From positions 1,650,001-1,682,000 of the forward strand of contig NC_014833.1 of NCBI RefSeq assembly GCF_000179635.2: 32,000 nt of DNA, in the 5' to 3' direction. Shown piece by piece: positions 4,504 to 32,000 of the stretch. Every line of letters starts with the position of its first letter. Positions within the stretch are counted from its first letter, which is position 1. The notes below the pieces were generated by a model. It searched no databases and was not told where the DNA came from. It saw nothing but the letters and a program-made list of their open reading frames with translations. Source of the stretch: Ruminococcus albus 7 = DSM 20455 (GTDB lineage Bacteria > Bacillota > Clostridia > Oscillospirales > Ruminococcaceae). The position numbers and the translations under genes were made by a program.

Positions 4504-4516
4504 TCAAACAACCCAA

Positions 4517-4550
4517 AGCCAGAGATTTGCAGGTCTCTGGCTTTCTTTTA
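4517..4550 (+). terminator. Intrinsic terminator of the metallopeptidase gene
   Basis: AGCCAGAGA...TCTCTGGCT is followed by TTCTTTTATT. A second hairpin CTCCCACC/GGTGGGAG lies at 4570-4590. Confidence 0.7.
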
Positions 4551-16306: not shown

Positions 16307-18796
16307 TCAGATAACAGTTACAAGAACTGCATTCCTGATCGCATTTGCAACATCCCATGTGCCGTTGACCTTAGCAGCGATAGCTACCTTGTAGCTCATG
16401 CCGGGTGTAAGGTTCTTAGGAGTTACATATGACAGAGTAGAACCGGAGATAGACTGAGTCTGAACTCTCCATTTGCCTGCCAGATAAACTGCGATACCGT
16501 AGTTCTGAGCATTGGAAACTGCGCTCCATGTAAACTGTATCTGATGATACTGAGCGCTGTAGTTCAATCTGATATTCTGAGGATAAGTATCGCCGTAAGT
16601 CTGCTGAGGATCAGGATCGGGATCTGTATTAGTCTTTTCGGGTCCCTTGATGCCTGTACCTGCTACTGCACCGATAACTTCATCAACGTAGAATGAAGTG
16701 GTAGAGCTGTCTGTCTCAACATAGATCTGAACATTTGATGCGCCATCGGGTATCTTGAAGTTCTTGTTTGCAAGCTGTGTCCACTGACCCTTTGTTACTG
16801 TTTCAGTAGCGATCTTGGTGTAGTTGGTAGTGCCGCTTGCATCGTCATACTGCATTGTGAAATGGAACTTATCGGTAGAAGGACCTTCAAGGTAGTTTAC
16901 TATAGCACTGAAGCTGTATTCTGTACCTGCCTTGAATGCGCGAGTATCAAGTGTATAAGAAGCACCGTTCCAAGCGCTTTCTCTGCCTGATACATACAGT
17001 GAGCTGTTTCCGACGAATGCAGTGTTGGTGCTGGATGCTATGCTTGCAGCACCTCTTGAATTGAAGTTGTCGGTAGAACCTTCAAATCCGTAATTGAAGT
17101 ACCAGCCGTACTGATTGGGCTCAATAGGCTTAACTTCAGCGCCGCCGTTGAACTTGGAACCATCGCCCCACTGGCTGTCGGGGATGATAGAAGTTATGTA
17201 GTTGTATGCGGTCTTGGGCTGATTGTTTCCATCATAAAGCAGAGGCAAGTTTCCGGTTTTGCCTACCCAAGAGTTATTATCGTTAGGACCCCATACCTGA
17301 ACAAGTGTAACCTTACCCTTGTACTTGCCGCTCTTGTTTACGTCAACACAGTGCTGGAAAATAGCCTTATACTTTTCTGCCTGCTGCTGATCAGAATACT
17401 TATAACCGTCACGGGAGATATCAAGCTCAGTTACCTGAACATCGATACCCAGGCTGAGGTAATCATCCATTGCAGCCAGGTATTCCTGAGTTGAACCCCA
17501 AGAATTGTATGCACTGCAATCAATATGTGACTGCATACCCATACCGTCCAGCAGACCCTTGTTGTGCAGAGGAACAAGTATAGTATTCTTTATGCAGTTT
17601 TTCTTATCACGAGCGAACTCATTGTAGTCGTTGTAGTAGAGCTTGCATCCCTTAGGTGCATACTTTCTTGCATAAGTGAATGCCTTTTCAACGAATGAGT
17701 TATTTCCGTAAACTCTTACCCATGCAGAGGAACCGTTCTGTCCGTTAGTTCCGTTGGTAGGACGCAGACCACCGTTATTGGCAGTTCCGTCATATATTAC
17801 CTCGTTACATACATCATAAGCGTAAAGGTTTACAGAAGGATACTGTGTAGCGTAAGCATTGAACATATTCTTGATGTAGCTTTCCATACGCTGATCCATA
17901 GTGTAGGAATTTACATAGCCGTTGTTGTTATTGAATCCCTGCTTGAAGAACCACTCGGGAGTCTGGCTGTGCCATACCAGTGTATGACCACGGAAAGCGA
18001 TATTGTTCTTTGCGCAGAAATCAAGTATAGAAGCGCAGCGGCTGAGAGATACTTTAACATTGGTATCGGAAGAACCGTTCTGAACGATAGTAGCATCGGG
18101 CTTAGTCTCGTTCTCGCACTCGATAGCATTGTGATCTTTGAGCATTATGCCTTTGATAGCGGAATTATTAACTGTATTTCCGTTCAGGATATTACCTACA
18201 CGGAAATAGTCAGCAAACTCATCCTTCAGACCCTTTCCGTAAGGAGCTGCTGCAGCTATAGCAGCTGACTTCTCGGCAGTTACCTTGACATCATCAAAGA
18301 TGAAATCGTCAGTATTATCGTTAGTAAGAGTCAGTTCATATTCGTATGTGTTTTCAGGTGCCTTGTAATCTGCTGTAAGTTCAGCCCACTTGCCGCCCTT
18401 GACTTTCTTTTCGTCAAGAGTTACAACAGTCACTTCATCTGTCTCTTCATCAATGTACTTCAGATCAAGTCTGAATGTGGTATCCTTTTCACTTAATACC
18501 TGCATGGAATAATCGTACTTAACTCCACCGAAAAGGTAAAGTCCCTTTGATGAAGCTGCACCGTCTTCGGTTGAAGTACGTCCTGTGACCTTCATACCTC
18601 TTGAAGAATCATAACCGCCGTTATCAATAGCAGTAAGTTCTATCGAGGTGTCTGTGCCGTGCCAACCATCATAGTTGATCTCAAAACTGTCGTAAACTAC
18701 TTCCTGTGCGTAAACAGGAGCAGTAAACTGTGGCATAGCTGTTGTCAGACAGCTGAGAGCCATCAGTGATGCCAGAATTTTCTTATGCTTCTTCAT
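16307..18796 (-). CDS. Secreted GH10 endo-1,4-beta-xylanase: CBM4_9/CBM22-like, GH10, CBM4_9/CBM22-like, PD-rich linker, FN3-like module; no dockerin
   Basis: The signal peptide is MKKHKKILASLMALSCLTTAMPQFTAPVYA. GH10 signatures are FRGHTLVWHSQTPEWFF, YAYDVCNEV (acid/base Glu) and DVQVTELDIS (nucleophile Glu). Carbohydrate-binding beta-sandwich modules flank the catalytic domain. The linker is DPDPDPQQ. Confidence 0.93.
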   Translation of the reverse strand: MKKHKKILASLMALSCLTTAMPQFTAPVYAQEVVYDSFEINYDGWHGTDTSIELTAIDNGGYDSSRGMKVTGRTSTEDGAASSKGLYLFGGVKYDYSMQVLSEKDTTFRLDLKYIDEETDEVTVVTLDEKKVKGGKWAELTADYKAPENTYEYELTLTNDNTDDFIFDDVKVTAEKSAAIAAAAPYGKGLKDEFADYFRVGNILNGNTVNNSAIKGIMLKDHNAIECENETKPDATIVQNGSSDTNVKVSLSRCASILDFCAKNNIAFRGHTLVWHSQTPEWFFKQGFNNNNGYVNSYTMDQRMESYIKNMFNAYATQYPSVNLYAYDVCNEVIYDGTANNGGLRPTNGTNGQNGSSAWVRVYGNNSFVEKAFTYARKYAPKGCKLYYNDYNEFARDKKNCIKNTILVPLHNKGLLDGMGMQSHIDCSAYNSWGSTQEYLAAMDDYLSLGIDVQVTELDISRDGYKYSDQQQAEKYKAIFQHCVDVNKSGKYKGKVTLVQVWGPNDNNSWVGKTGNLPLLYDGNNQPKTAYNYITSIIPDSQWGDGSKFNGGAEVKPIEPNQYGWYFNYGFEGSTDNFNSRGAASIASSTNTAFVGNSSLYVSGRESAWNGASYTLDTRAFKAGTEYSFSAIVNYLEGPSTDKFHFTMQYDDASGTTNYTKIATETVTKGQWTQLANKNFKIPDGASNVQIYVETDSSTTSFYVDEVIGAVAGTGIKGPEKTNTDPDPDPQQTYGDTYPQNIRLNYSAQYHQIQFTWSAVSNAQNYGIAVYLAGKWRVQTQSISGSTLSYVTPKNLTPGMSYKVAIAAKVNGTWDVANAIRNAVLVTVI
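16310..16585 (-). other. C-terminal FN3-like module, copy B (shared with the LRR protein)
   Basis: YPQNIRLNYSAQYHQIQFTWSAVSNAQNYGIAVYLAGKWRVQTQ...TPKNLTPGMSYKVAIAAKVNGTWDV. An identical 26-nt run TACAAGGTAGCTATCGCTGCTAAGGT occurs in both copies. Confidence 0.6.
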
Positions 18797-18991: not shown

Positions 18992-19064
18992 AAGAATTAG
19001 TAATCAATTATATGCGTATTACATGACCGCTAATTAAAACCGATCACATATCAAGGAGTTGAAC

Positions 19065-20789
19065 ATGAGTAATGATCATCGTCCGCTCATAGGCGTGATA
19101 ACAGCCCGGGCATCACAGAGTGAACAGCGGCAGCTGCTCAAAGGCATACTTTCAAAAGCTGATGAGCTTGGCATAGATATCGCTGTATTTTCAAATGTAT
19201 ATAACTTCGTGGAGTATTTTGCAGACGTTGAGGTGGAAAACAAGATCTATGAGCTTGTCCGCTCAGAACGCCTTGACGGAGTGATAATCACATCTGAGTC
19301 ACTTATCTTTCCCAATCTGCAAGAAAGAATATATGAACATATAAAAGGTCTTGATATACCTATCGTGATAACCGATGCTGAGGTAGAGGGATACACCTGT
19401 ATAAATACTGATGTCAGGAGCGATCTTATGAATATCGCCCGTCATCTTACGGATGTACACGGGATAAAGGATATAGATATCATAACAGGTCCCGAGGAGT
19501 TTGAAACTTCCCGTCTGCGTGTTGAAGGTGTCAGGAAGATCATGGAGGAGCGGGGATTGCCGTTTGGCGATGAGAATATTATATATGGCAATTTCTGGAA
19601 TAACACAGGTGAAGATCTTGCGGAGGAATACCTGAGCGGAAACCGCAGACTTCCTCAGGCTGTGATATGTGCCAATGATTATATGGCATTCGGACTGCTG
19701 GATAAATTGTTAGATCATGATCTGAATATACCTGAGGATCTTACTGTTATAGGGTATGAGCATATCGGTGAAAGGATATATCACTCTCCCGTACTGACCA
19801 CCTATCAGCGCAACCGCGCAGCTATAGGCGCAAAAGCAGTAGCGATGATATATTCAAAGCTTACAGAGGCGCCTATGGAAGATATAAGTATTTCGGGCTG
19901 CATGATCTGCGGTGATACCTGCTCGTGCGGGGTAGAGAAAAGATATCTCCGAGACGAACTGGTTGAGATAAGACAGATGAAACTGTATAACGATCTGAAT
20001 TTCTTTGGCAACTTTGAACAGCAGTCTGTTACCTGCCGCTCTATATCCGACTATATACGCACCCTTCAGGATTTCTCCTACCTGATAAGAAATGTTTCGG
20101 GAATATACCTTTGTCTTCATGAGGATTGGTGTTCACGGTCGCACAAGTCCTCTGTAAAAGAGTATTCAAACAATGAACCTATGATATGCTACCGTATCAT
20201 CAGTCCCGAATACGGTTCCGACGATCCTGCGGTTTTTACAAGGGGTCAGCTTTTTCCTGCAGAACTTACGGGCGCAGGGGATAAAAAGTTTCTTTTCTTT
20301 GCACCGTTGTTTTCAGAGGGCAAGGAGTTTGGGCATTTTATTTTTCAGTACACCACACCGGGCTCATATGATCCTGTAATGATAGAATGGCTCAAAATTA
20401 CTGTAAATGCACTTCAGGTGCTTCGTATGAAAAACGATATAAACACCCTCCTTGAATGCACTAATCTGTCAGAGTATCACGATACAGCTACAGGTCTGTA
20501 CAACAAACAGGGTTTTATAAATGAGCTTGACAACGCCTGCAAAAAGCTGAACGATAAGGAAAAGCTTCCTCTTATTATGATACGCACAGGTATCTTTTCC
20601 GATGATAGCCGTATCGATAAGAAAAATCTCTCCGTAAGGCTTGATGTTGAGATCGCAGAATGTCTTAACCGTATTGCTGCTGATATCAATGGTTTCTGCG
20701 GAAAGCTTTCTGATAAGCAGTATATCCTTACGACAGTAGGCATAAAGAAGTTTTCAGACAACCATTGTAAGACAGGTACAGCAAGCTAA
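19065..20789 (+). CDS. Cytoplasmic LacI/PBP1-type sugar-binding-domain protein without an HTH, an unknown middle domain, and a degenerate, C-terminally short GGDEF-like domain
   Basis: RBS AAGGAG precedes ATG 19065. The N-terminal PBP1 pattern is IGVITARASQSE...AVICANDYMAFGLLDKL...DLTVIGYE. The GGDEF-domain entry is HDTATGLYNKQGF, but the signature position reads LSDKQY and the ORF ends about 21 aa later. Confidence 0.8.
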   Translation: MSNDHRPLIGVITARASQSEQRQLLKGILSKADELGIDIAVFSNVYNFVEYFADVEVENKIYELVRSERLDGVIITSESLIFPNLQERIYEHIKGLDIPIVITDAEVEGYTCINTDVRSDLMNIARHLTDVHGIKDIDIITGPEEFETSRLRVEGVRKIMEERGLPFGDENIIYGNFWNNTGEDLAEEYLSGNRRLPQAVICANDYMAFGLLDKLLDHDLNIPEDLTVIGYEHIGERIYHSPVLTTYQRNRAAIGAKAVAMIYSKLTEAPMEDISISGCMICGDTCSCGVEKRYLRDELVEIRQMKLYNDLNFFGNFEQQSVTCRSISDYIRTLQDFSYLIRNVSGIYLCLHEDWCSRSHKSSVKEYSNNEPMICYRIISPEYGSDDPAVFTRGQLFPAELTGAGDKKFLFFAPLFSEGKEFGHFIFQYTTPGSYDPVMIEWLKITVNALQVLRMKNDINTLLECTNLSEYHDTATGLYNKQGFINELDNACKKLNDKEKLPLIMIRTGIFSDDSRIDKKNLSVRLDVEIAECLNRIAADINGFCGKLSDKQYILTTVGIKKFSDNHCKTGTAS

Positions 20790-20814: not shown

Positions 20815-21054
20815 ATGATTGATATGATTTACAACCTCCGTGTGGGCGATATTCACGCCGCTGAGTTCTCTGACGAGTGGAGCAAGCTCTGCATTCCGTT
20901 TGAAAACTCTCTGAGTGAGGCGCAGATTGAAGTGTTCCACAAGATACTCGATTGCGTAAGCGAAACTTCCGCTGCTGAGATGAGAGCAGTTTACAAGGCA
21001 GACTTCAAGGTGAGAGAACTTAATTGTATGATTTCAGATTTTTTGGGGGATTAA
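20815..21054 (+). CDS. Hypothetical small helical protein (79 aa from ATG 20815)
   Basis: The ORF has a weak RBS (AAAGGG). It resembles, from memory only, small proteins carried on Firmicute mobile elements (pattern ..G.I...E......W.KL......LSEAQ.E.F). Confidence 0.5.
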   Translation: MIDMIYNLRVGDIHAAEFSDEWSKLCIPFENSLSEAQIEVFHKILDCVSETSAAEMRAVYKADFKVRELNCMISDFLGD

Positions 21055-21193: not shown

Positions 21194-21222
21194 TTGAATC
21201 TCAATTAGTTTAATGGTATAAT
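21194..21222 (+). promoter_or_regulatory. Extended -10 promoter of the RHS toxin gene
   Basis: TTGAAT (21194-21199), a 17-nt spacer ending in TGg, then TATAAT (21217-21222). Confidence 0.6.
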
Positions 21223-21304: not shown

Positions 21305-24300
21305 GTGAGTGAGAGTATGGATTATAGAAAGAATTGGAAGAAACGAAGTGTTTCAGTTGCATTGAGCGCAGCAATGCTAACAAACATGGCGGCTGTTATC
21401 CCAACGGCAGCAATTGAAGAATTCAAGAAAAATAATGAGATAATTCAATCTCTGAAGAAGCAGGCAGCACATGAAGAGGCTTTTGACTACGCTCTTATCA
21501 CAGGGAATGCTGATACGACTCTTGAAATGAATGCTCAGAAGATCGACATAACAGGTGATGTGCATTCAAACAGCAATTTTATCTACCGAGGATCGGAGAT
21601 CGTTATCAACGGAGCTTGTGAAGCATCAAAAAATACAACAATTAGTGTTTCCGATAGTGAGTATCTTGACAAGATATATTCCGTTGATGATGATACAGAA
21701 CTTGTTTCAGTTCCTGACTATGCGGAAGAAATTCATGCGCATTTGCTTGAGCAAAATGTTCCCGAGTATTACGATTGGACGAGTTTTAGTGACCGCTATG
21801 TTGATATAAGCAACGGAATATGCGTAGATGGAACGTTAGGCGTTTACTCAAGCCAGTTCACAGGAAACGGCATTATTTATGCAAAGAACAGCATAAACTA
21901 TTCAGTTGGTGAAATCAGCAGTGCGGATGGCGGTATGGTCGTACTTTGTGCCGCAAACGGAGATATAAACATTTATGCCTCAAACACCACTATCAATGGT
22001 ATCATCTATGCTCCGCACGGAACAGTGACTATTACAGGGCAGAATGTCACGATAAACGGCAGGATAATAAGCGACAAGTTTAATTTCTGGGGTTCAAACC
22101 TTACCATTAATAAAGGCGAAGGTGATCTGGATCTTTTGGATTTTCTTTTCCTTCCGGCTCCCGAAATATCAAGCGATGGAGAATTCAAGGAGAACAGAAA
22201 AGTAACTTTCGATATTTCTCAGACAGAAAAAATCGATAAAGTTGCAAAAGAAGAAACAGTGTGGACTTTCTCCAAAGTTGATGGCGAAACCAAAACAGAA
22301 GCTGTTCAAGGAGAAGATTATGTCATTGATGAAAGTTCGTCTGACGGATTCATCAAAAACATGATCTTCAAAAAATATGGTACTTATGAAGTTTCGGTCA
22401 CTGTGAGATCCGGTGATTCGGAAAAGACAGGTTTGCAAACTATTGAAGTCATCCCGGATGTTGCTCCTATTGTTGATTTCACGTTAGACAATGATTATTA
22501 TTATCGTGACCCCGAGAATGGCAGCAAAGCCTCAATTCCCCTTAAGGACCATTCATATTCTGTAGACAATGATGAGATAGGTCAGCGTATATGGACTGTT
22601 TATTATGATGCTGATAATAACGGAGTTTTCGATGAATCTGAGGGAGAGATCATAAGTGATTCTAATGAGAGCGAACTGACTTATACAACTGGGAAGGTAG
22701 GCAAATACAAGGTAGAACTTACGTCTGTAGAAACGTTCAGTGATACTATCCCGAGCCTTATAACACAAGATGATTACAGACGTGCTGATACCGGCGATAA
22801 ATCTATTGAAAGCAAGACTTTTACAGTAGGAAACATTGCTCCCGAAGCAAGTGTTGATGTGGGGCTTGCAAAAGATGTTGACCTTGTTTTCACAGTCGGC
22901 TCGGCAGATGTAGAAAAGATACAGCTTTATGCCGATAGGATAGAGCAGATAAAGGCAGAACTTAAAGAACAAGGCTACAATGTATATCTGTCAACAGTTT
23001 CCACTTCAAGTCTTACGGCAAAAGATACATTTGCGTGGGACGAATATGACCATTATGATTATCAGGATTGGTATAACATTAAAAGACCAAAACATATAAT
23101 CTATGACGAGGACAATATTCAGATGGTAGGATATTGTTGGCAGGCATTGCGTGACTTTCTTTATGTTGAAGATAAAAATGAATCACAGAAAATATTCACT
23201 TTTGACATTCAGCGTGATAAGACCGACTGGCACAGCATGGAAGGCGGCGGTTTTCTTTTCAATACTTCTATAGAAGATGGAGTTATCAAAGGTTTTTATG
23301 TGCTTATAACATGCTCCGGACTTCAACTTTCTCAGATAAAAGGGGTAAGTGTAGAGGACTTCCAAAACGGAAAGAGAAATTCTATAACCGCTTTAAAAAC
23401 TTTCAAACTTGACAACCTGTACGATGAGCATAACATCAAGATAGTTGTTGATAAAAAGTCATTGTCAGTATGGGACGGAGAGAAACTCGTTATTGACAGC
23501 TACTCTCTTCCCGAAAATGATTATGGATATGGTTATGGACCGATAACCTCTCATGCAAGTCACGGCTGCACTCAGCAATCTTACTTTACTTTTGCTAATA
23601 TAAAAATGCAGACCATATCCGGTGAAAAGCTCTCCGATGTTTTGGCAAACTATGATTGGAAGAGCAAAACAAGCCGATATGTTATAAATCTGAGTGATTC
23701 CGAGCTTGATGAATTTGAAACCGATGAGGAGCTTGCTGCTGTTTCAAAGCAGATACTTGAAAACGAGCTGAACTTCATAGGTATAGGAAATGGTGAAAAC
23801 AGCGCTCAGTATACAGATATTATAAATTCGGCTGCGGGAAGCGGTATATATCTTGATGCTGAGGATACTGATAACTCTCCCGAAAACCTTTCAAATTATG
23901 TGGTAAGCAATGAGAATTCAAAGAATTTCTCAGTAGATTATTATGTTGCAAAAGATCAGCCTATCAGATATATCGATTCGTACAAGGATCATGAGAAAGA
24001 CCCTATGTACTCTGAAAGTTGGGAATACGAGTACGACCCGTCTGTATTCTATAATGAGTCCGGCAGTACCGAGGTCAAAAAATTCTCTTCCGATAAAGCA
24101 ATAACTGTTTTTGAAGAGGCAGGCGCATATACTATGCGTCTAAAGGTAAGAGACAATCCGGTCGGCGATAATGACTCATTGGATGAGTACAGATTATGGT
24201 CAGGCGAAAAGTCTTATGAAAAAGTTCTGATGGTCCATAACAGACCTGTTGCGGAACTTACCGTGAATGTATCGGAAAACCCGAATGACAAAAATACGGT

Positions 24301-27300
24301 GATAATCAACACACAGGATAATTGTTATGATAAGGATCATATTTCTGATGCAGATAAAGGGATCGTATCCAAATCATATAAATGGAAAAAACTCTATGAT
24401 GCAGAATGGACAGACGGTCCTATCCCTAACAAGGTAGAGATCGGCGGTATTTATATTATCTGCCTTACAACGGTTGACAAAGAAGGTCAGATAAGCTATC
24501 CGAATATTCAGATAATCAATACAGCAGATTTCCTTGTTCCGGAAGAGGCGGAAGATAAAGAGCCGCCTGTTATCGAGCTTGAACTTGAAAAAACTAAAGC
24601 GAATGCGGGCGAGAGTGTAAAGATCACTGCGTATGCTTCGGATAACATAGGTGTCGATACCTTTGAACTCTACATTGACGGAGAGCGTGTCCTTGACCAT
24701 GCAGGCAGAATTTTCTACACGGGTGATAAAACCGAAACAGTAGAGATAAAAGCAATTGCAGTAGATATTAACGGTAATCGCTCTGAAGAAACACAGCAGT
24801 TAACGATCGTTGACAATAGAGATAAGACCGCTCCTACAGTAGAGATAGAATCTCCCGAAGACAGAGCGATAATGGATTTCTCTGTTCAGTTTGTTGGCTC
24901 GGCTTATGATGACACTCTGCTCAAAAATTATAGGTTGGAATACAGAAGACAGGGTGCAGGCAGCTTTAACATTATCGCCGAATCAGATCATGAAGTAAAA
25001 AGCGGAATACTCGGCGAATGGAATGTCGAGGGGCTTGAATCGGGAATTTATGAGGTCAAGTTGTCGGCAGAGGACGGTGCAGGAAACTCCTCATATGTTA
25101 TCTATCAATATGAACTGAAGCCGAATAAAGAGAGCGGTATTGTAGATACTGAAACCGTTGACCATGAAGCTCCTGTCATCATTCTGACATCTTCTAAAGA
25201 TAAAGCAGATGTTGGTGAAGAAGTTAAGGTGACAGTTGATGTAAAGGACGAATCCAAAATAGATGCGATCCAAGTCTACATTGACGATGAACTTATTATG
25301 GACGGTTCTGGAAAGATAACGTTCAGCAGAGGTGAGCCGGTAGTTTCCAAAATAAAGGTTTACGCTTCCGATGAATTTGGAAATATATCTGTAAAGGAAC
25401 TTTCTGTAATATTCGTTGATGACAGCGACTACGATCCGCCTGTTACCAAAATAGACACACCAGAGCATGCAAGCACCATAAGCGGCAGCGTTGATATTAC
25501 AGGAACAGCAGCTGATGAAACGGAATTATTAAGGTATAGGCTGGAGTATAAGGCTCAGAACGAAGAATCTTATACAGTCTTTGCCGAAATGTATAATCAG
25601 GTCGAAAACGGCACGCTCGGAACATTCAACACTTCTGCACTTGCAGACGGTGTGTATGATATTCGCCTGACAGCAGAAGATAAGAGCGGTAATTCCTCAT
25701 ATGTTCAGTACTCTTACATTGTAGACAACAGTGAAAATAACAATAATAACGATGAGGATACTATCAAGCCTGTCATAGATCTGGTACTCACTAAGACCGA
25801 AGCTGATATAGGCGAGGAAGTGACGGGTATCGTTTCTGTGACCGATAATAAGAAGCTTGAAGCAGTAAAGGTATATCTTGATGACGAGATCATACTTACA
25901 AGCAGCGGCAGCTTTACATTTACCAGAGGAAAAGCCGCAGCTGCAAAAATAAAAGTATATGCTGTTGACAGTGCCGGGAATATGGCAACAGAAACTGCGG
26001 AATGCGTATTTATTGATAACAGTGATAAAAAAGCACCTACTGCAAAAATAAGCTCCCCCAAGCACGCAAGTGAGGTCAGCGGAAAGGTCGATATCAAGGG
26101 TACGGCAAAGGACGATGAGGAACTTTTAAGATATACTCTCGGCTACAGACTTTCCGGAACAGACGATGTCATCATTTTGGCTGAAAAGACCGAAGCTGTG
26201 GATAATGATATTCTCGGCATACTTAATACCGAAAAGCTTGTAAACGGCGTGTATGACATTGTTCTTACAGTTGAGGATAAGGGCGGCAATAAAACTGTAG
26301 CCCAAATCTCATATATTGTAAATAATGAACAAGAGGGAACAGGTCTTATTGAAACTGATGACGACAAGGACATTATCGACCCTGTAATAAAACTTGCATT
26401 GTCAAAGAATGTTGCGGGGATCGATGATAAAGTAAAGGCAAGCTTTACCGTTACAGATAATAAGAAAGTAAGTTCGATAAAAGTATATGTTGACGGTAAG
26501 GAAACAGAATATAAGAATAATCAAGTTGAATTCACTTCAAATAAAGTCGGAAAAATAGAAGTGAAGGTCGTTGCTGTTGACAGCAGCGGAAATAAGGCAG
26601 AGAAAAAAGCGGTTTGCAGTTTCTATAATTTGAGTGATAACACTCCGCCCGAATTGGATATAGTTTCTCCCGAATATTACGAAACAGTAGAAAAGCCGAC
26701 TGACATTATCGGTTCTGTCTATGATGAGACCGAGCTTGCCTATTATAAAGTCGAGTATCGTCCCAAGGGAGCAGAAAAGTACACAACACTTAATAAGAGT
26801 ACCGAAGAAAAACATAATGAATCCTTGGCTTACTTCGATACTACGGTTTTGGCAAACGGCATTTACGAGTTTAAGGTGATAGCTGAGGACTTTGGCGGCA
26901 ACACTACAACTTGTGAATTCCAATATGTAGTTGACGGAACACTTAAAGTCGGGAATACAAACCTCGGATTTGAAGATGTTAATACCAAAATATCCGGCAT
27001 AGGAGTTTCGGTCGCAAGATACTACAGCAGTTCAAACAAGCTGTCGGGCGATTTCGGCATGGGCTGGACACTCGGTCTTGGCGGTATAAGACTGTACGAA
27101 ATGAGCAGTATTGCAGAAGGTTGGGAACAGCAGTATGATCGTCAGATTGGCAATTTCTTAAGCACTGTTTATACTGTCAGTGAATTAGTTTCACACGATG
27201 TTGTAATAACATACGGAGACGGAACTTGTGAACGGTTCAAAGTGAAATTAGACCCTGCAAGTCACTCTTTTGTTCCGCTGCAAAACACTTCAATAAAATT

Positions 27301-30300
27301 TGAAAGCCCGACAGGGTCAAAGAATAAGCTTGAAGTTTACGGTAAGAATAAAGTTTATTTGGATGGTTACTTAGGCGAAACAGAACTTCTGGATTATAAT
27401 ACCGATAAATTCGTGGTGCAGAAATACAAGCTGACTCTTGAAGATGAAACAGAAGTCATCATCGACAGGGATAAGGGTGTTGAGAGCATAACGGATAAAT
27501 TCGGTAACACCATAAAAGTAACCGAGAACGGCTATACAGACCCTAATGGTGTAGGCTTGACATTTGAACGTGATCCACATGGAAGACTCACCTCTGTGAC
27601 TGAGCCTGACGGAAAGACAACTAAGTATACTTATGATGAGAACGATGATCTTATCAAAGTGACAGATCCTATGGGGTATTCTGTAAGCTACGTCTATGAC
27701 AGCGAACATAACCTCATAAGCATGATCGACTCCAGAGGTGTTGAAGCCGCTCACAATGAGTATGATGAAAGCGGACGTTTAGTTGCTACAGTAGATGCTA
27801 ACGGAAACAGAATGACTTATGAGCATGATGTTGACGGAAGAACAGAAATTGTAACAGATAAGCTTGGAAATAAAAGTGTCTATGTTTACGATGATAAGGG
27901 CAACGTCCTGAAATGCACCGATGCAAACGGCAACACCACATATGCAGAATATGATAAATACGGTCACATAAAGAGCAGTACCGATGCTCTCGGAAATGTT
28001 ACGCAGTATCAGATGACCGCAACAGGTGAAGTGCTGTCATTAACAAACGCTGTAGGAAATACGGTAACAAACAGCTACAATGATAAGAAGCAGCTTACAT
28101 CTGTAACGGCAATGGGCGTTACTCAGATGATCGTAAATTATGATGAGGATGGTTTGCTCACAAGTACAAAGGACGCTATGGGCAACGGCACTTATTATGA
28201 TTATGACAGTTCCTATCGTATAAAGGGTATCTCGGACGAGATCGGCTCTTTCATCAATTTCACATATGACAGTAAAGGAAATGTAATTTCATCTACTGAT
28301 GGGGCAGGTGAAACTGCAACATTTACATACGATGATTCGGATAATTGCATAAGCAAAACAGTTGTAAAGACCACGGAGAAAGGCTCAGAAAATATTACCG
28401 AAAACTATGAATATGATGCTATGAACAGACTTGTAAAGGTTATTTATGCCGATGGTTCTGTTACAAGCGTGTCATATGACGGAAACGGTAATATGACGTC
28501 CGCTGTAGACGAAAAAGGCAGAAAAACATCGTATGTGTATGACAACAACTGCAATCTTGTAAAGATAACCTACTGCGACAATACGAGTGAAACATTCGGA
28601 TATGATGCAGAGGGCAGAAATACTACAGCAACGGACAGAATGGGCAGAACAATCACCATGACCTATGACAAGGTCGGAAATCTGCTCACAAAAACTTATC
28701 CTAATGGGATATCCGAGAACTACAGTTACGATGCAAAATACAGATTGACGTCTGTTACAGATGTTAATGGCGGTACGACATCATATGAGTATGATGAGAT
28801 CGACAGAAACACGGCAATAGTTGATGCACTCGGAAACAGAACCGAGTTTGCTTACAATTCAAGCTCTATGCTTTCTTCTATGACAGATTCGAAAGGTGAT
28901 GTGTGGAAGTATGAATATGATGCAAACGGAAACAGAACTAAGGTGATAATGCCGGACGGCACAAGCATCTCTTCCGAATATGATGCAAGAGGCAGAGTTA
29001 CCAAGCAGACAGACCAAAACGGCTATTCCACAAGTTACGCTTATGACGGTGCTGACAGGCTTGTATCTGTAACAGATGCAGTCGGCAGCAAGTGGGTGTA
29101 TACTTACAGCGAAGTAGGCGAGCTCACTTCTGTAACAGACGCAAACGGAAATACAACGTCATATGAATATGACAATATGGGCAGAGTTGTCAAGACCACA
29201 AATGCGGCGGGCAAGACAGCTGAATGCACATATGATGACAGCGGAAATGTTCTTACATCGACTGACTATTCCGGCACGACAACGACTTATACTTATGACA
29301 GCCTTGACAGATTGATCAAGCAGGATATTGACGGAGAAGTTACCGAATTTGCTTACACAAGCGGAGGACTTCTTTCCTCGGTGACCGACAGCACCGGAAC
29401 TATCAGTTATACCTATAACAATACCGATGGGTTGAGTAAGGTCAAGCTGGCAGATGGTACAGAGATAAAGTACAGCTATTATAAGTCCGGTAATCTTAAA
29501 ACTGTATCTACGGCTTACGGCGATACTACCTTCGGCTATGACAAGATGGACAGGCTGACAAGGGTCGTTGACAAAAACGGTGTAGCTACGCTTTATGAGT
29601 ACGATGCCAACGGAAACAGGACTGCTGTAAAATATGCAAACGGAATAACCACGACTTTTGCCTACAATGACGTAAATCAGCTTATCAGTGAAAAAACAGT
29701 TGACAAAGACAACAATGTTGTAGTACAATATATTTATACGTTAGGCAAAGCAGGCGAACGACTGAAAGTTACCGAACCCGATAAGGTGACAGAGTACGGC
29801 TATGACGAACTCTACAGGCTGACATCGGAAAAGGTTACAAAGGACAAGAAAACTACCACAACTACTTACACCTACGATAATGTAGGAAATCGTCTGACTA
29901 AGACCGAAAACGGTACTACTAACAAGTACAAGTACAATTCGCTGAATCAGCTTGTTTCGGAGAGCGGTGTTACAAACAGCTATGATGACAACGGCAATCT
30001 GATAAAGCAGGTTGAGAACGGCAAGACCACGACCTATACCTTTGACAAGCAGAACAGGCTCGTCAGAGCAACCATTTCGAGCGGTCAGAATGTTACGGTC
30101 GAGGAGTATAGGTACGATTACGCAGGCAACAGAACTGCAAAAATAACCGAGGGCGAAACTACCAATTATGTAGTTGATACCAACAGTGCGCTTGCTCAGG
30201 TCCTTTATGAAACTGACGGCACGGGCAGCTTGAAAACCTATTACACCAGAGGCAGTGAGCTTATTAGCTTACAGCGTGAGCACGAAGAACGCTACTATTT

Positions 30301-31822
30301 GTATGACGGTCACGGCAATGTCAGAAGACTTACCGACGAGGACGGTGCTGTAACCGATACCTACGATTATGATGCGTTTGGAAACCTTACAGAGCATACG
30401 GGCGAGACCGAGAACAGCTATCTCTATTGCGGTGAACAGTATGATGCAAATACAGGTTTCTACTATCTCCGTGCAAGATATATGAACCCGTCAACGGGGA
30501 CATTTATCTCGATGGACAGCTATCAAGGCTCGATGTTTGATCCTGTAAGTCTGCATAAGTATCTGTATGCTAATGCGAATCCGGTGATGAATTGCGACCC
30601 GACAGGTTATTTCACGATTGGGGAATGTGATGTCAGTGCAGCTATTCAAGGTGTTCTGGATAAGCTGATTACTCCTAAACTTATTCAGGTATTTAATCGT
30701 ATCAACGATCTTGCCACTATTTATGAAACAGGTAAGCAAGTTGTAATGATCTTGACAGACCCTGATATGTCTGCATGGGATGTTGTGTTTGCCCTTGGTC
30801 GTGGTGTTATCACAGGTTTGTTCATTAACCATATGTGTGCTATGAAACGCATTGGACCTATCATAAGTAAAATTATGGTTGGTTACGGTCTTGTGTCACA
30901 ATGGGAAAGCATAATGGATGCCGCCAAAGACGGAGATTGGGATTTAGTTGCAACTCGTTCTATACAGTTTGTGGTTCAGCTTATCACAATGCACCAAAAC
31001 TGCTTTACCGGGGATACTCTGGTTGCGGCAGAGGACGGACAGATACGCATTGACGAAATTAAAGTCGGCGATAAGGTTTGGGCATATAATGTTGAAACCG
31101 GAGAAACCGAGCTTAAAGGAGTTAAGCAAGTCTACATTCACGAAACAGATGAGCTTTTACACCTATACACTTCTGTTGGTGCAATAGATACTACTTCTAA
31201 TCACCCATTTTACGTGCTTGGAGAAGGCTGGGTTGCCGCAGGTGACTTGGCTGTCGGCGATGAGATCTACTCTCTTGACGGAACGATTGGTATTGTCACC
31301 GGTTCTCAGTTTGAAAAGCTTGATGTGCCTATCAAGGTTTATAATCTTGAAGTTGCTGACTTCAATACATACTTTGTCGGCGATAATGCGGTTTTGGTGC
31401 ATAATTATTCTGATGGTGCAGATACAATGCACTATCCTAAGAAGGCACAAGATATCGATTTACGTGGTACAGGAACCAACTATCGTGATGCATTAGATAT
31501 CGCATTTGAACAGACTGGTTATCCAAAAGAACAGTTTATGGTTTCAAAGTGGGCAAGAGATATAAATGGTAAGTCTATACCAGTGGAATACATGGGACCG
31601 AATGGTTCATATGTTGACATAGATATAGCTCATTTGTCAAGTTTTGATAGAAATGGTAATTGGGCTACTGGACCAGATGTGCCACATGTAGGTTGGCAAA
31701 CTGGAAGAAGCAATAAAACAACAGGTCATATTTTACTTGATGATGTTCCAACAGGAAGAGATTATTGCTATTCTGATTTATCATCGCAAATCGCCAAAAT
31801 ATTAAAGCAATTCGGTTTATAA
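21305..31822 (+). CDS. Giant secreted RHS/YD-repeat polymorphic toxin (about 3,500 aa)
   Basis: The ORF is uninterrupted for 10.5 kb. The likely start is ATG 21317 (RBS AGGAAGTGAG) and the signal-like N-terminus is KKRSVSVALSAAMLTNMAAVIPTAA. Dozens of YD repeats are present (YxYDxxGNxxxxxD). The RHS core ends in YYLRARYMNPSTGTFISMDSY...HKYLYANANPVMNCDPTGY, followed by a HINT domain and a C-terminal extension. Confidence 0.95.
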   Translation: MSESMDYRKNWKKRSVSVALSAAMLTNMAAVIPTAAIEEFKKNNEIIQSLKKQAAHEEAFDYALITGNADTTLEMNAQKIDITGDVHSNSNFIYRGSEIVINGACEASKNTTISVSDSEYLDKIYSVDDDTELVSVPDYAEEIHAHLLEQNVPEYYDWTSFSDRYVDISNGICVDGTLGVYSSQFTGNGIIYAKNSINYSVGEISSADGGMVVLCAANGDINIYASNTTINGIIYAPHGTVTITGQNVTINGRIISDKFNFWGSNLTINKGEGDLDLLDFLFLPAPEISSDGEFKENRKVTFDISQTEKIDKVAKEETVWTFSKVDGETKTEAVQGEDYVIDESSSDGFIKNMIFKKYGTYEVSVTVRSGDSEKTGLQTIEVIPDVAPIVDFTLDNDYYYRDPENGSKASIPLKDHSYSVDNDEIGQRIWTVYYDADNNGVFDESEGEIISDSNESELTYTTGKVGKYKVELTSVETFSDTIPSLITQDDYRRADTGDKSIESKTFTVGNIAPEASVDVGLAKDVDLVFTVGSADVEKIQLYADRIEQIKAELKEQGYNVYLSTVSTSSLTAKDTFAWDEYDHYDYQDWYNIKRPKHIIYDEDNIQMVGYCWQALRDFLYVEDKNESQKIFTFDIQRDKTDWHSMEGGGFLFNTSIEDGVIKGFYVLITCSGLQLSQIKGVSVEDFQNGKRNSITALKTFKLDNLYDEHNIKIVVDKKSLSVWDGEKLVIDSYSLPENDYGYGYGPITSHASHGCTQQSYFTFANIKMQTISGEKLSDVLANYDWKSKTSRYVINLSDSELDEFETDEELAAVSKQILENELNFIGIGNGENSAQYTDIINSAAGSGIYLDAEDTDNSPENLSNYVVSNENSKNFSVDYYVAKDQPIRYIDSYKDHEKDPMYSESWEYEYDPSVFYNESGSTEVKKFSSDKAITVFEEAGAYTMRLKVRDNPVGDNDSLDEYRLWSGEKSYEKVLMVHNRPVAELTVNVSENPNDKNTVIINTQDNCYDKDHISDADKGIVSKSYKWKKLYDAEWTDGPIPNKVEIGGIYIICLTTVDKEGQISYPNIQIINTADFLVPEEAEDKEPPVIELELEKTKANAGESVKITAYASDNIGVDTFELYIDGERVLDHAGRIFYTGDKTETVEIKAIAVDINGNRSEETQQLTIVDNRDKTAPTVEIESPEDRAIMDFSVQFVGSAYDDTLLKNYRLEYRRQGAGSFNIIAESDHEVKSGILGEWNVEGLESGIYEVKLSAEDGAGNSSYVIYQYELKPNKESGIVDTETVDHEAPVIILTSSKDKADVGEEVKVTVDVKDESKIDAIQVYIDDELIMDGSGKITFSRGEPVVSKIKVYASDEFGNISVKELSVIFVDDSDYDPPVTKIDTPEHASTISGSVDITGTAADETELLRYRLEYKAQNEESYTVFAEMYNQVENGTLGTFNTSALADGVYDIRLTAEDKSGNSSYVQYSYIVDNSENNNNNDEDTIKPVIDLVLTKTEADIGEEVTGIVSVTDNKKLEAVKVYLDDEIILTSSGSFTFTRGKAAAAKIKVYAVDSAGNMATETAECVFIDNSDKKAPTAKISSPKHASEVSGKVDIKGTAKDDEELLRYTLGYRLSGTDDVIILAEKTEAVDNDILGILNTEKLVNGVYDIVLTVEDKGGNKTVAQISYIVNNEQEGTGLIETDDDKDIIDPVIKLALSKNVAGIDDKVKASFTVTDNKKVSSIKVYVDGKETEYKNNQVEFTSNKVGKIEVKVVAVDSSGNKAEKKAVCSFYNLSDNTPPELDIVSPEYYETVEKPTDIIGSVYDETELAYYKVEYRPKGAEKYTTLNKSTEEKHNESLAYFDTTVLANGIYEFKVIAEDFGGNTTTCEFQYVVDGTLKVGNTNLGFEDVNTKISGIGVSVARYYSSSNKLSGDFGMGWTLGLGGIRLYEMSSIAEGWEQQYDRQIGNFLSTVYTVSELVSHDVVITYGDGTCERFKVKLDPASHSFVPLQNTSIKFESPTGSKNKLEVYGKNKVYLDGYLGETELLDYNTDKFVVQKYKLTLEDETEVIIDRDKGVESITDKFGNTIKVTENGYTDPNGVGLTFERDPHGRLTSVTEPDGKTTKYTYDENDDLIKVTDPMGYSVSYVYDSEHNLISMIDSRGVEAAHNEYDESGRLVATVDANGNRMTYEHDVDGRTEIVTDKLGNKSVYVYDDKGNVLKCTDANGNTTYAEYDKYGHIKSSTDALGNVTQYQMTATGEVLSLTNAVGNTVTNSYNDKKQLTSVTAMGVTQMIVNYDEDGLLTSTKDAMGNGTYYDYDSSYRIKGISDEIGSFINFTYDSKGNVISSTDGAGETATFTYDDSDNCISKTVVKTTEKGSENITENYEYDAMNRLVKVIYADGSVTSVSYDGNGNMTSAVDEKGRKTSYVYDNNCNLVKITYCDNTSETFGYDAEGRNTTATDRMGRTITMTYDKVGNLLTKTYPNGISENYSYDAKYRLTSVTDVNGGTTSYEYDEIDRNTAIVDALGNRTEFAYNSSSMLSSMTDSKGDVWKYEYDANGNRTKVIMPDGTSISSEYDARGRVTKQTDQNGYSTSYAYDGADRLVSVTDAVGSKWVYTYSEVGELTSVTDANGNTTSYEYDNMGRVVKTTNAAGKTAECTYDDSGNVLTSTDYSGTTTTYTYDSLDRLIKQDIDGEVTEFAYTSGGLLSSVTDSTGTISYTYNNTDGLSKVKLADGTEIKYSYYKSGNLKTVSTAYGDTTFGYDKMDRLTRVVDKNGVATLYEYDANGNRTAVKYANGITTTFAYNDVNQLISEKTVDKDNNVVVQYIYTLGKAGERLKVTEPDKVTEYGYDELYRLTSEKVTKDKKTTTTTYTYDNVGNRLTKTENGTTNKYKYNSLNQLVSESGVTNSYDDNGNLIKQVENGKTTTYTFDKQNRLVRATISSGQNVTVEEYRYDYAGNRTAKITEGETTNYVVDTNSALAQVLYETDGTGSLKTYYTRGSELISLQREHEERYYLYDGHGNVRRLTDEDGAVTDTYDYDAFGNLTEHTGETENSYLYCGEQYDANTGFYYLRARYMNPSTGTFISMDSYQGSMFDPVSLHKYLYANANPVMNCDPTGYFTIGECDVSAAIQGVLDKLITPKLIQVFNRINDLATIYETGKQVVMILTDPDMSAWDVVFALGRGVITGLFINHMCAMKRIGPIISKIMVGYGLVSQWESIMDAAKDGDWDLVATRSIQFVVQLITMHQNCFTGDTLVAAEDGQIRIDEIKVGDKVWAYNVETGETELKGVKQVYIHETDELLHLYTSVGAIDTTSNHPFYVLGEGWVAAGDLAVGDEIYSLDGTIGIVTGSQFEKLDVPIKVYNLEVADFNTYFVGDNAVLVHNYSDGADTMHYPKKAQDIDLRGTGTNYRDALDIAFEQTGYPKEQFMVSKWARDINGKSIPVEYMGPNGSYVDIDIAHLSSFDRNGNWATGPDVPHVGWQTGRSNKTTGHILLDDVPTGRDYCYSDLSSQIAKILKQFGL
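24563..26937 (+). repeat. Four tandem in-frame coding repeats of about 199-204 aa, each two beta-sandwich (Ig/FN3-like) units
   Basis: Repeat starts are at 24563 (PPVIELELEK), 25169 (APVIILTSSK), 25766 (KPVIDLVLTK) and 26378 (DPVIKLALSK). Each contains ..V.V.A.D..GN.. then P.V.I.SP......G.V.I.G.A.D...L..Y.LEY...G......A......G.LG..NT..L.NG.Y...L.A.D..GN. The copies are diverged, not recent duplicates. Confidence 0.85.
26950..30610 (+). other. RHS shell: N-terminal plug-like segment, YD repeats and the RHS-associated core ending at DPTGY
   Basis: The segment starts with ARYYSSSNKLSGDFGMGWTLG. YD repeats run from about 27500. The DPTGY motif is at 30596-30610. Confidence 0.9.
31001..31405 (+). 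other. HINT (pre-toxin HINT-like) autoprocessing domain
   Basis: CFTGDTLVAAEDGQIRIDEIKVGDKVWAYN...TSNHPFYV...GWVAAGDLAVGDEIY...VYNLEVADFNTYFVGDNAVLVHN spans 135 aa. It begins with Cys, ends in HN, and is followed by Tyr, which is not a splice nucleophile. Confidence 0.8.
31406..31819 (+). other. C-terminal 138-aa putative toxin domain, family not recognised
   Basis: Its position after the RHS core and HINT domain points to a toxin role. The sequence is YSDGADTMHYPKKAQDIDLRGTGTNYRDALDIAFEQTGYPKEQFMVSKWARDINGKSIPVEYMGPNGSYVDIDIAHLSSFDRNGNWATGPDVPHVGWQTGRSNKTTGHILLDDVPTGRDY.., and I cannot match it to any known toxin motif. Confidence 0.55.
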
Positions 31823-31835
31823 GGGAGTGCTATTA

Positions 31836-32000
31836 ATGATTGAAGATTTAATAGAATATTGTGTTAAAGGTGATATTAGCTATCGAATTATATCAAACGA
31901 TGAGAAAGAAAAGATTAAAGGTTATATAAATGAACGATATCTTGATAAAAATAGAAAAAGTGGACGTACACTTTTCGACCATTTAAAAATCAGCGAAAGT
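31836..32000 (+). CDS. Candidate cognate immunity protein, N-terminal 55 codons; the 3' end lies outside the window
   Basis: RBS AAGGGAG (31821-31827) overlaps the toxin stop. ATG 31836 lies 13 nt after the stop. The frame is open to the window end (MIEDLIEYCVKGDISYRIISNDEKEKIKGYINERYLDKNRKSGRTLFDHLKISES). It has no signal peptide. Confidence 0.5.
   Translation, partial: MIEDLIEYCVKGDISYRIISNDEKEKIKGYINERYLDKNRKSGRTLFDHLKISES

Follow-up and report, generated by a model that had tools for sequence, protein, structure and literature searches.

A single plus-strand open reading frame (ORF) at positions 21305-31822 dominates the end of the stretch of Ruminococcus albus 7 = DSM 20455 DNA analysed here (contig NC_014833.1, positions 1,650,001 to 1,682,000; 32,000 nucleotides (nt), hereafter the window), and its product is most probably a Sec-exported polymorphic toxin built on an RHS shell. 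The frame comprises 3,505 codons from a GTG and contains no stop in translation. Preceded by aggaagtgag, the ATG at 21317 is the more probable start and gives a protein of 3,501 amino acids (aa) with a mass of 389.0 kDa and an isoelectric point of 4.5. It is the start chosen by gene callers and RefSeq, the GTG at 21305 being merely the first possible one, and all residue numbers below count from it. An exact-sequence look-up returned ADU21969.1 / WP_013498137.1 / UniProt E6UGD1. NCBI names the protein "polymorphic toxin type 47 domain-containing protein" or "polymorphic toxin-type HINT domain-containing protein", and UniProt names it "YD repeat protein". The locus on the source contig (L001) extends beyond the window; window positions equal L001 positions plus 11316. 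The features are as follows.

21194..21222, plus strand: promoter-like site (TTGAAT, 17 nt, TG-TATAAT), ~95 nt 5' of the start codon, a consensus match only.
21317..21415, plus strand: start codon and putative Sec-type signal peptide, aa 1-33 (MDYRKNWKKRS, then VSVALSAAMLTNMAAVIPTAA, then the predicted cut before IEE), by heuristic reading.
21416..24562, plus strand: N-terminal module, aa 34-1082, from an AlphaFold2 model, Foldseek and a homologue search.
24563..26983, plus strand: four tandem immunoglobulin (Ig)-type units, aa 1083-1889, from partial Big_7, DUF4625 and Big_13 matches.
26984..30610, plus strand: RHS/YD shell, aa 1890-3098, with a plug-like N-terminal start and a core at aa 3018-3098, from Pfam and TIGRFAM.
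30611..31000, plus strand: helical pre-toxin segment, aa 3099-3228 (130 aa, 14.4 kDa), from an AlphaFold2 model and a homologue scan.
31001..31405, plus strand: PT-HINT or type-A bacterial intein-like (BIL) domain, aa 3229-3363, from Pfam, phmmer and Foldseek.
31406..31822, plus strand: Ntox47 tip (PF15540), aa 3364-3501 (138 aa, 15.4 kDa), and the stop codon.
31836..32000, plus strand: 5' part of the candidate immunity gene (ADU21970.1), from the ORF and the source contig; the full gene encodes 151 aa and ends 291 nt past the window.

The protein thus runs from a signal peptide through an N-terminal module of ~1,050 aa, four Ig-type units, an RHS shell, a helical segment and a HINT domain to the tip. 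The original prediction, made from the letters of the window and a list of its ORFs, had proposed one very long frame with its parts in this order, and the ORF list, the translation and the profile matches confirm it. That prediction had also named an assembly artefact as a way in which it could fail. An artefact was rejected, as gene calls on several independent Logan assemblies and on an NCBI genome contig gave the identical 3,501-aa protein, and the repeat units, which are merely 51-57% identical in DNA, are too divergent for collapse or expansion during assembly.

The C-terminal domain, for which the original prediction recognized no family, is an Ntox47 domain, and RefSeq already names the protein accordingly. 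PF15540 scores 81.6-87.2 bits against a cut-off of 25, with E values of 7e-23 for the whole protein and 1e-24 for the isolated C-terminus. Residues D3379, D3381, R3383, E3405, H3439, D3454, P-H3457, H3471, D3475 and R3481 are invariant in six tips. Read against the published table, the series they form in the alignment, D..RG(T)..E..D..PH..H..D..R, fits the Ntox47 signature D, [HRK], RT, E, D, PH, H, [DE], R of a family predicted to be a BECR-fold RNase; Ntox47 occurs in proteobacteria and firmicutes and is linked to Sec, type VI secretion (T6SS), type VII secretion (T7SS), HINT and RHS, with no immunity family listed (PMC3482391). The type member of the family is Salmonella Rhs2, whose toxicity in E. 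coli is lost upon substitution D192A or H204A; Rhs2 binds EF-Tu and forms an effector-immunity pair with SciX, which neutralizes it (bioRxiv 10.64898/2026.05.10.723254). The R. albus tip was modelled within the 404-aa C-terminus at a pLDDT of ~60-87 with a disordered loop, and a sequence search of solved structures with the tip gave nothing at E<=10. A related protein, P0159, combines RHS and Ntox47 and has no HINT among its precomputed Pfam domains.

Directly before the tip lies the PT-HINT domain that had been predicted there (PF07591, aa 3235-3363, E = 9e-27). It is 47% identical to the Clostridium thermocellum BIL domain 2LWY (phmmer E = 1e-32), and its model overlays on that structure with a Foldseek TM of 0.96 and an rmsd of 1.0 Å. 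The key residues are Cys3229 at position 1, Thr3293 and His3296 in the motif TTSNH (3292-3296), the His3362-Asn3363 pair and Tyr3364 at position +1. Among 54 relatives the alignment columns C132, T196, H199, H265 and N266 are conserved; these match Cys3229, Thr3293, His3296, His3362 and Asn3363. By its sequence motifs the domain is a type-A BIL, having Cys1, TxxH and His-Asn and no +1 nucleophile. Type-A BILs form an N-terminal thioester, cleave C-terminally via Asn cyclization and yield mostly cleavage products with weak splicing (PMC4031507).

The shell is equally well defined. RHS_repeat (PF05593) matches 18 stretches with an E value of 9e-132, YD_repeat_2x (TIGR01643) matches 13 stretches and Rhs_assc_core (TIGR03696) covers aa 3018-3097 with an E value of 4e-16. 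The claim of an RHS/YD polymorphic toxin with a full shell reaching DPTGY therefore stood. The shell ends in NPVMNCDPTGY, in which DPTGY occupies aa 3094-3098, and it has sequence matches to solved Rhs shells, among them 8H8A, 7Q97 and 8CP6. The second aspartyl-protease motif is intact (DPTGY, D3094) and aligns with those of 8H8A and 7Q97; in Rhs1, mutation of the Asp of this motif abolishes C-terminal cleavage (PMC8636562). The sequence after DPTGY comprises 403 aa (44.5 kDa). For the RHS core (window 30284-30646), the best solved-structure matches are the mosquito salivary gland proteins SGS4 and SGS1 (9ON3, 8FJP), ahead of bacterial Rhs effectors.

The original prediction placed the end of conservation at DPTGY. 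The pattern of conservation followed by divergence holds; the break, instead, comes after VLVHN, at the end of the HINT domain. An alignment of the main gene, its orthologues at loci L005 (uncultured Ruminococcus) and L006 (a metagenome-assembled genome of the Oscillospiraceae), which are 68-69% identical, and two orphan cassettes is conserved to VLVHN and unalignable afterwards. The L006 tip is a WHH HNH-nuclease, followed by a SUKH immunity gene. The best matches in GTDB species genomes and metagenome contigs are 68-70% identical, the source genome not being among those returned. When aa 2862-3501 were compared with 165 fetched loci by tblastn, homology ended near DPxG in 105 and at the HINT end in 13; six had the same tip, and all six had been fetched through immunity homologues. 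We further aligned 54 relatives of the helical segment plus HINT, drawn from proteins P0044-P0163 (query window 30608-31819). Five carry Ntox47, one each carries Tox-REase-9, Ntox21, Tox-URI2, Tox-ART-HYD1, AHH and Tox-HNH-EHHH, and about 40 of the 54 match no Pfam toxin-tip family at E <= 0.001. On these alignments, the constant region in this clade includes the helical segment and HINT, and variability starts 265 residues after DPTGY.

The two orphan cassettes themselves, a kind of element that the original prediction suggested looking for downstream, lie beyond the window end, downstream of the immunity gene. Orphan 1 is a 261-aa ORF starting MSLHQNCF, with a full HINT domain and a Tox-ART-HYD1 tip (E = 1e-26), followed by a 135-aa gene; its homology to the main gene reaches ~10 codons upstream of its own ATG. 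Orphan 2, a 143-aa ORF, consists of the last 59 HINT residues and a tip with a weak Ntox24 match (E = 0.002), and a 155-aa gene lies at some distance behind it. The HINT DNA of the main gene matches that of orphan 1 at 73% over 455 nt and that of orphan 2 at 82% over 178 nt, and the two orphans are 93% identical to each other in DNA. All of these similarities end at the Tyr3364 codon (HN/Y, window 31408). A terminator-like hairpin with a 12-bp stem (L001 21027-21058) lies between the immunity gene and the orphans. Copies of a 75-nt segment, 83% identical, lie at the 3' end of each of the first two immunity-type genes (L001 20973-21047 and 22358-22430); the first copy overlaps the 5' arm of the hairpin, and the segment may be a shared cassette boundary or a terminator.

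As had been predicted, a small immunity-type gene follows 13 nt after the toxin stop codon (TAA), starting at 31836 and cut by the window end. The view that this candidate matches nothing recognizable did not survive, since the gene has six homologue clusters (58-92% identity) and so belongs to a small family whose members lie, in every context examined, directly after a HINT-Ntox47 tip. At L087/L088 the homologue follows a 3,391-aa RHS protein that carries a Lectin_C and VWA N-terminus and not the R. albus module; at L084 it belongs to an orphan array in which HINT-AHH is followed by a HINT-fragment-Ntox47; and at L089 it again stands directly behind a HINT-Ntox47 tip. Because Ntox47 and this gene remain linked on different scaffolds, the two travel together, as is expected of a cognate toxin-immunity pair. 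The candidate weakly resembles DUF6756 over almost the entire profile (positions 13-153 of 160), at 18.5 bits, below the cut-off of 27. Five of the seven family members show this weak resemblance, always below the curated threshold.

The N-terminal module gave no match above threshold when aa 1-1230 were scanned with Pfam. Scanned alone, the segment gave a borderline match of aa 162-259 to the beta-helix family DUF7305 (26.4 bits, cut-off 27) and weak PKD matches. An AlphaFold2 model built on 18 homologues has a mean pLDDT of 86. It predicts a DUF7305-like beta-helix at aa ~58-265, two Ig/PKD-like domains at aa ~285-505, an alpha/beta domain at aa ~515-870 into which a ConA/L-type-lectin-like jelly roll is inserted at aa ~594-768, and two further beta-sandwich domains at aa ~876-1068. 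The best domain-level Foldseek match of the jelly roll is the L-type-lectin carbohydrate-recognition domain of Emp47p (TMt 0.56). It is the sole domain-level match; with the entire 1,049-aa model, Foldseek returned generic strings of Ig domains at a TM of ~0.1.

The original prediction had considered this N-terminal passenger to be without recognizable relatives, a view that the homologue search overturned. Using window 21422-24568 as the query, we found at least 25 homologues, a lower bound in that the 8,000 candidates with the most shared words were scored and the query's own protein was not among the matches. Several lie on long contigs with no RHS domain detected; CBM_2 is found at the N-terminus of P0003-P0005, P0011 and P0015, and a C-type lectin domain (Lectin_C) is found in P0021. 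P0008 is a complete stand-alone gene of 1,233 aa, and at least one other RHS toxin, that at L170, carries the same module (55% identity over aa 5-1362 and 51% over aa 1570-2913). Because homologues occur without a detected RHS domain and the module reappears in another RHS toxin, these sequences indicate that it is a reusable surface or binding module, not unique to the R. albus toxin. A role as a pilus-associated protein, to which DUF7305 had hinted, was rejected since the ORFs upstream of P0008 are decayed YD-repeat fragments and not pilins. These fragments (L171 2950-6001) are accompanied by a signal-peptide-bearing stub of 207 aa and have the appearance of the wreck of an RHS gene. The L170 gene (418-8492) encodes three Ig units, not four, and is split by a frameshift around 4490-4550; it is a pseudogene or a low-coverage assembly error.

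The four Ig-type units start at aa 1083, 1285, 1484 and 1688, are 199-204 aa long and share 31-46% protein and 51-57% DNA identity in pairs. These starts and lengths, with the partial Ig-family matches, agree with the four tandem beta-sandwich repeats of ~200 aa that had been predicted, and from the partial Big_7, DUF4625 and Big_13 matches each unit is read as two Ig-type beta-sandwiches.

At the N-terminus, the leader has an n-region with five K/R residues, a hydrophobic core at aa 12-32 with a KD19 peak of 1.57 at aa 19-24, and a putative cleavage site, TAA/IEE, after the core; a lipobox Cys is absent from it. The Sec-type leader that had been predicted was thus found, and export by the Sec route as in WapA would follow from it. 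Neither the protein (Pfam, NCBIfam) nor the ten largest ORFs that precede it in the window showed an LXG, WXG100, PAAR, VgrG or T7SS component, which agrees with the predicted lack of T6SS, T7SS and LXG genes.

The helical segment between shell and HINT is moderately hydrophobic and was modelled by AlphaFold2 as four long helices with a pLDDT of 35-88. A Pfam scan of aa 3099-3228 gave no match at E<=1, so that PT-TG and the other Pfam pre-toxin families were rejected for it. When 1.84 billion representative proteins were scanned in full with HMMER, the segment turned up in only 30 clusters; in seven of the eight clusters checked it lies between an RHS region and PT-HINT, and the eighth proved to be a spurious repeat match. 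It is conserved among the R. albus gene, L005 and L006. One could propose that the RHS toxins of gut and rumen Firmicutes have a distinct and rarely sampled module for delivery, made up of the segment and the type-A BIL domain. The segment would be an entry device for Gram-positive membranes; HINT would release or splice the tip and, as a recombination handle that removes itself, would let any cassette of tip and immunity gene be swapped in with no scar of the constant region on the mature toxin. We regard this proposal as rather doubtful.

Taken together, the data are best explained if the product of the ORF is an RHS polymorphic toxin of the WapA-like kind, exported by the Sec route and directed by R. 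albus 7 against neighbouring bacteria, and we consider this very probable. The signal peptide would take the 389-kDa precursor through the membrane. The beta-helix/Ig/lectin-like module and the four Ig-pair units would make up an extended stalk on which the RHS shell is presented and which probably binds a surface, either the target cell or plant fibre. The shell would close on its C-terminal core, and the aspartyl-protease motif is predicted to cut after DPTGY, the 44.5-kDa cargo of helical segment, HINT and Ntox47 presumably staying associated with the shell after the cut. HINT would then form a thioester at Cys3229 and, by cyclization of Asn3363, free the 15.4-kDa Ntox47 tip; less often, it may ligate the tip to the helical segment. 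The helical segment may help the tip to cross the target membrane; Ntox47 would then act as a BECR-type RNase or translation poison, and the 151-aa product of the next gene is expected to protect the producer and its kin. The promoter-distal orphans share HINT-coding DNA with the main gene and could replace the tip and immunity pair via homologous recombination.

Several observations speak against one part or another of the model. Pfam, NCBIfam and motif searches found no wall anchor of a known kind (LPXTG, SLH, LysM, CWB2 or dockerin) in the protein, so surface retention and contact dependence remain assumptions. The first DPxGL motif is degenerate, with its Asp kept (D3067, FISMDSYQG) and a four-residue insertion. 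The 44.5-kDa cargo is large for one shell of ~1,200 aa, and HINT and tip might sit outside it; in teneurins, a toxin-like domain is located outside the shell. The KD19 peak of the helical segment, 1.47, is below that of typical transmembrane helices, and the model of the segment is of low to moderate confidence. In P0153 an Ntox47 tip stands directly after DPSGY with neither HINT nor helical segment, so Ntox47 as such needs neither. The BECR fold of the tip is a prediction, the Foldseek list for the C-terminal model being filled by inteins. Sequence searches of solved structures with the immunity candidate, as a single sequence and as a profile of seven, gave noise only, the presence of the SciX entry 9ZR2 among the searched structures being unconfirmed. 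Finally, the literature yielded no expression data or experiments on the R. albus 7 toxin locus, and literature searches with the locus tags and accessions, and with Ruminococcus albus and YD repeat, returned nothing.

The lack of a known wall anchor or sorting motif makes a released particle a serious alternative. The toxin would then be a soluble RHS particle, a large bacteriocin that is not cell-bound and that finds its targets through the lectin-like/beta-helix module, somewhat as the Streptomyces umbrella particles do. The module contains the lectin-like jelly roll, the fusion of its homologues to CBM_2 or C-type lectin domains suggests a binding role, the toxin of UmbC, a secreted component of umbrella particles (8W20), likewise comes after a HINT domain, and some Sec-exported polymorphic toxins diffuse, according to Zhang et al. 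(PMC3482391). However, the characterized Sec-dependent RHS toxins of Gram-positive bacteria, the WapA proteins of S. suis and B. subtilis, are associated with the wall and target neighbouring cells, a particle of 385 kDa would diffuse poorly, and an unrecognized anchor is no proof of an absent one. On balance we hold a soluble particle to be possible and somewhat improbable. Another question is what HINT chiefly does. It might mainly splice, excising itself and joining the helical segment to the tip as an "entry domain plus toxin" of ~30 kDa, so that HINT would be chiefly a removable recombination handle. This would agree with its type-A BIL motifs (Cys1 and His-Asn), with the ability of type-A BILs to ligate their flanks without a +1 nucleophile (PMC4031507), with the constant pairing of helical segment and HINT and with the exchange of all tips exactly at the C-terminal HINT boundary. 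Yet cleavage products outweigh the spliced product in tested type-A BILs (PMC4031507), and the tip of P0153 implies that the helical segment is dispensable for the tip. Predominant splicing is therefore unlikely in our judgement, and release of the tip by cleavage is preferred.

The remaining readings concern the target and the integrity of the gene. RHS shells also serve toxins directed at eukaryotes, TcB/TcC are among the structure matches and an RNase is toxic in any cell, so that rumen protozoa or fungi could be attacked in the manner of Tc-type insecticidal toxins instead of competing bacteria. The tightly linked immunity gene and the orphan toxin/immunity cassettes argue for bacterial competition, as do the bacterial-conflict nuclease tips with SUKH immunity at sister loci, and no TcA-like translocation partner was found; we consider a eukaryotic target very improbable. 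An even more remote prospect is that the long ORF arose in assembly or represents a non-functional gene in decay. In its favour are the frameshifted L170 orthologue with three Ig units against four and the decayed YD-repeat fragments of another genome (L171). The R. albus gene, by contrast, is intact and identical in the NCBI genome and the independent Logan assemblies, has repeats merely 51-57% identical in DNA and keeps all of its catalytic motifs. A WapA-like toxin used between bacteria remains the reading that we favour.

The neighbouring genes describe the host. A 1,311-aa S8 subtilase with Fn3-like and type-I dockerin modules is encoded at window 8837-12772, and a glycoside hydrolase family 10 (GH10) xylanase with two CBM4_9 modules and fn3 is encoded at 16307-18796 on the minus strand. 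Further genes of the window encode a BspA-type leucine-rich-repeat protein and a ricin-lectin protein. The dockerin, carbohydrate-binding module and GH10 genes, and the identity of the organism as R. albus 7, agree with the cellulosomal Gram-positive host that had been predicted; the subtilase and xylanase genes are typical fibre-degrading equipment of the host and unrelated to the toxin. Nearer to the toxin, a 576-aa ORF with a TTG start (19059-20789) has LacI-type periplasmic-binding-fold domains in aa 11-288 only, its C-terminal half having no family; no helix-turn-helix domain was detected in the ORF. A 79-aa ORF with no family (20815-21054) ends 262 nt upstream of the toxin start and was called in all four toxin-carrying assemblies. 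Promoter-like sites such as the one ahead of the toxin number three in the region against 2.0 expected, hence weak evidence. Scanning the window and the extended locus for Rfam families and tRNAs gave no matches. Downstream of the L006 toxin (9995-11717), a gene with a ThsA-Macro domain (E = 6e-40) and a gene with TIR and TPR domains have the appearance of a Thoeris-type anti-phage pair.

R. albus competes with R. flavefaciens and Fibrobacter over sites on plant fibre, so such a toxin could play a part in this contest in the rumen. To our knowledge, the Sec-dependent RHS toxins of Gram-positive bacteria have received much less attention than the T6SS Rhs effectors, and not one has been studied in a rumen bacterium that degrades fibre. 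The locus offers a clear natural instance of cassette exchange at the HINT boundary and not at DPxGL, of an Ntox47 tip whose immunity family is small and new, and of a scaffold that shares its N-terminal module with cellulose-binding and lectin-bearing proteins. Its relatives point to a large pool of HINT-linked candidate toxin tips without a family in gut and rumen Firmicutes. It leaves the established view of polymorphic toxins as it is: every major part has precedent, and the protein is an experimentally uncharacterized member of a catalogued toxin class. The combination of Sec, RHS, HINT and Ntox47 in Firmicutes was already tabulated by Zhang et al. in 2012 (PMC3482391).

WapA is the Sec-dependent precedent, being wall-associated and acting on neighbouring cells (PMC12704120). 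With WapA of B. subtilis and WapA-CT1 of S. suis (PMC12704120) the R. albus protein shares a Sec signal, a size of ~350-390 kDa, an RHS shell and associated core, a pre-toxin region, a variable C-terminal toxin, an adjacent immunity gene and the absence of T6SS and T7SS. Unlike WapA, it has no LysM or known wall-binding repeat and no upstream SecF-like or SrtB genes. Its N-terminus is instead a beta-helix/Ig/lectin-like module of ~1,050 aa with four Ig-pair units, a HINT domain stands between shell and tip, and the tip is Ntox47 in place of the tRNases of B. subtilis WapA. The closest parallel for the tip, the Rhs2-SciX pair of Salmonella Typhimurium, likewise has PF15540 on an RHS element, a small downstream immunity gene and a predicted BECR nuclease. 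Rhs2 differs, however, in that it is T6SS-associated and has a truncated cage, no HINT and a tip that comes straight after PxxxxDPxGL, and SciX resembles CdiI, whereas the immunity protein of R. albus has no sequence match in solved structures and is weakly DUF6756-like. The T6SS Rhs effectors (RhsA, 7Q97; Rhs1/Tre23, 7PQ5; Tse5, 8CP6; RhsP, 8H8A) share the YD shell and an aspartyl-protease plug that can be aligned to DPxG. In contrast to them, the R. albus protein is of Sec type, lacks PAAR, prePAAR and VgrG-binding parts and carries a much longer post-cleavage cargo (403 aa) with a second autoprocessing domain. Streptomyces UmbC (8W20/8W22; PMC11062931) is also a Sec-exported polymorphic toxin of a Gram-positive bacterium with HINT just before the variable tip, but has an ALF-repeat stalk, lectin partner proteins and no RHS shell. 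Finally, the R. albus HINT has Cys1, TxxH, His-Asn and no +1 nucleophile in common with the C. thermocellum BIL domain 2LWY; its processing is predicted, and it additionally marks the boundary at which cassettes are exchanged.

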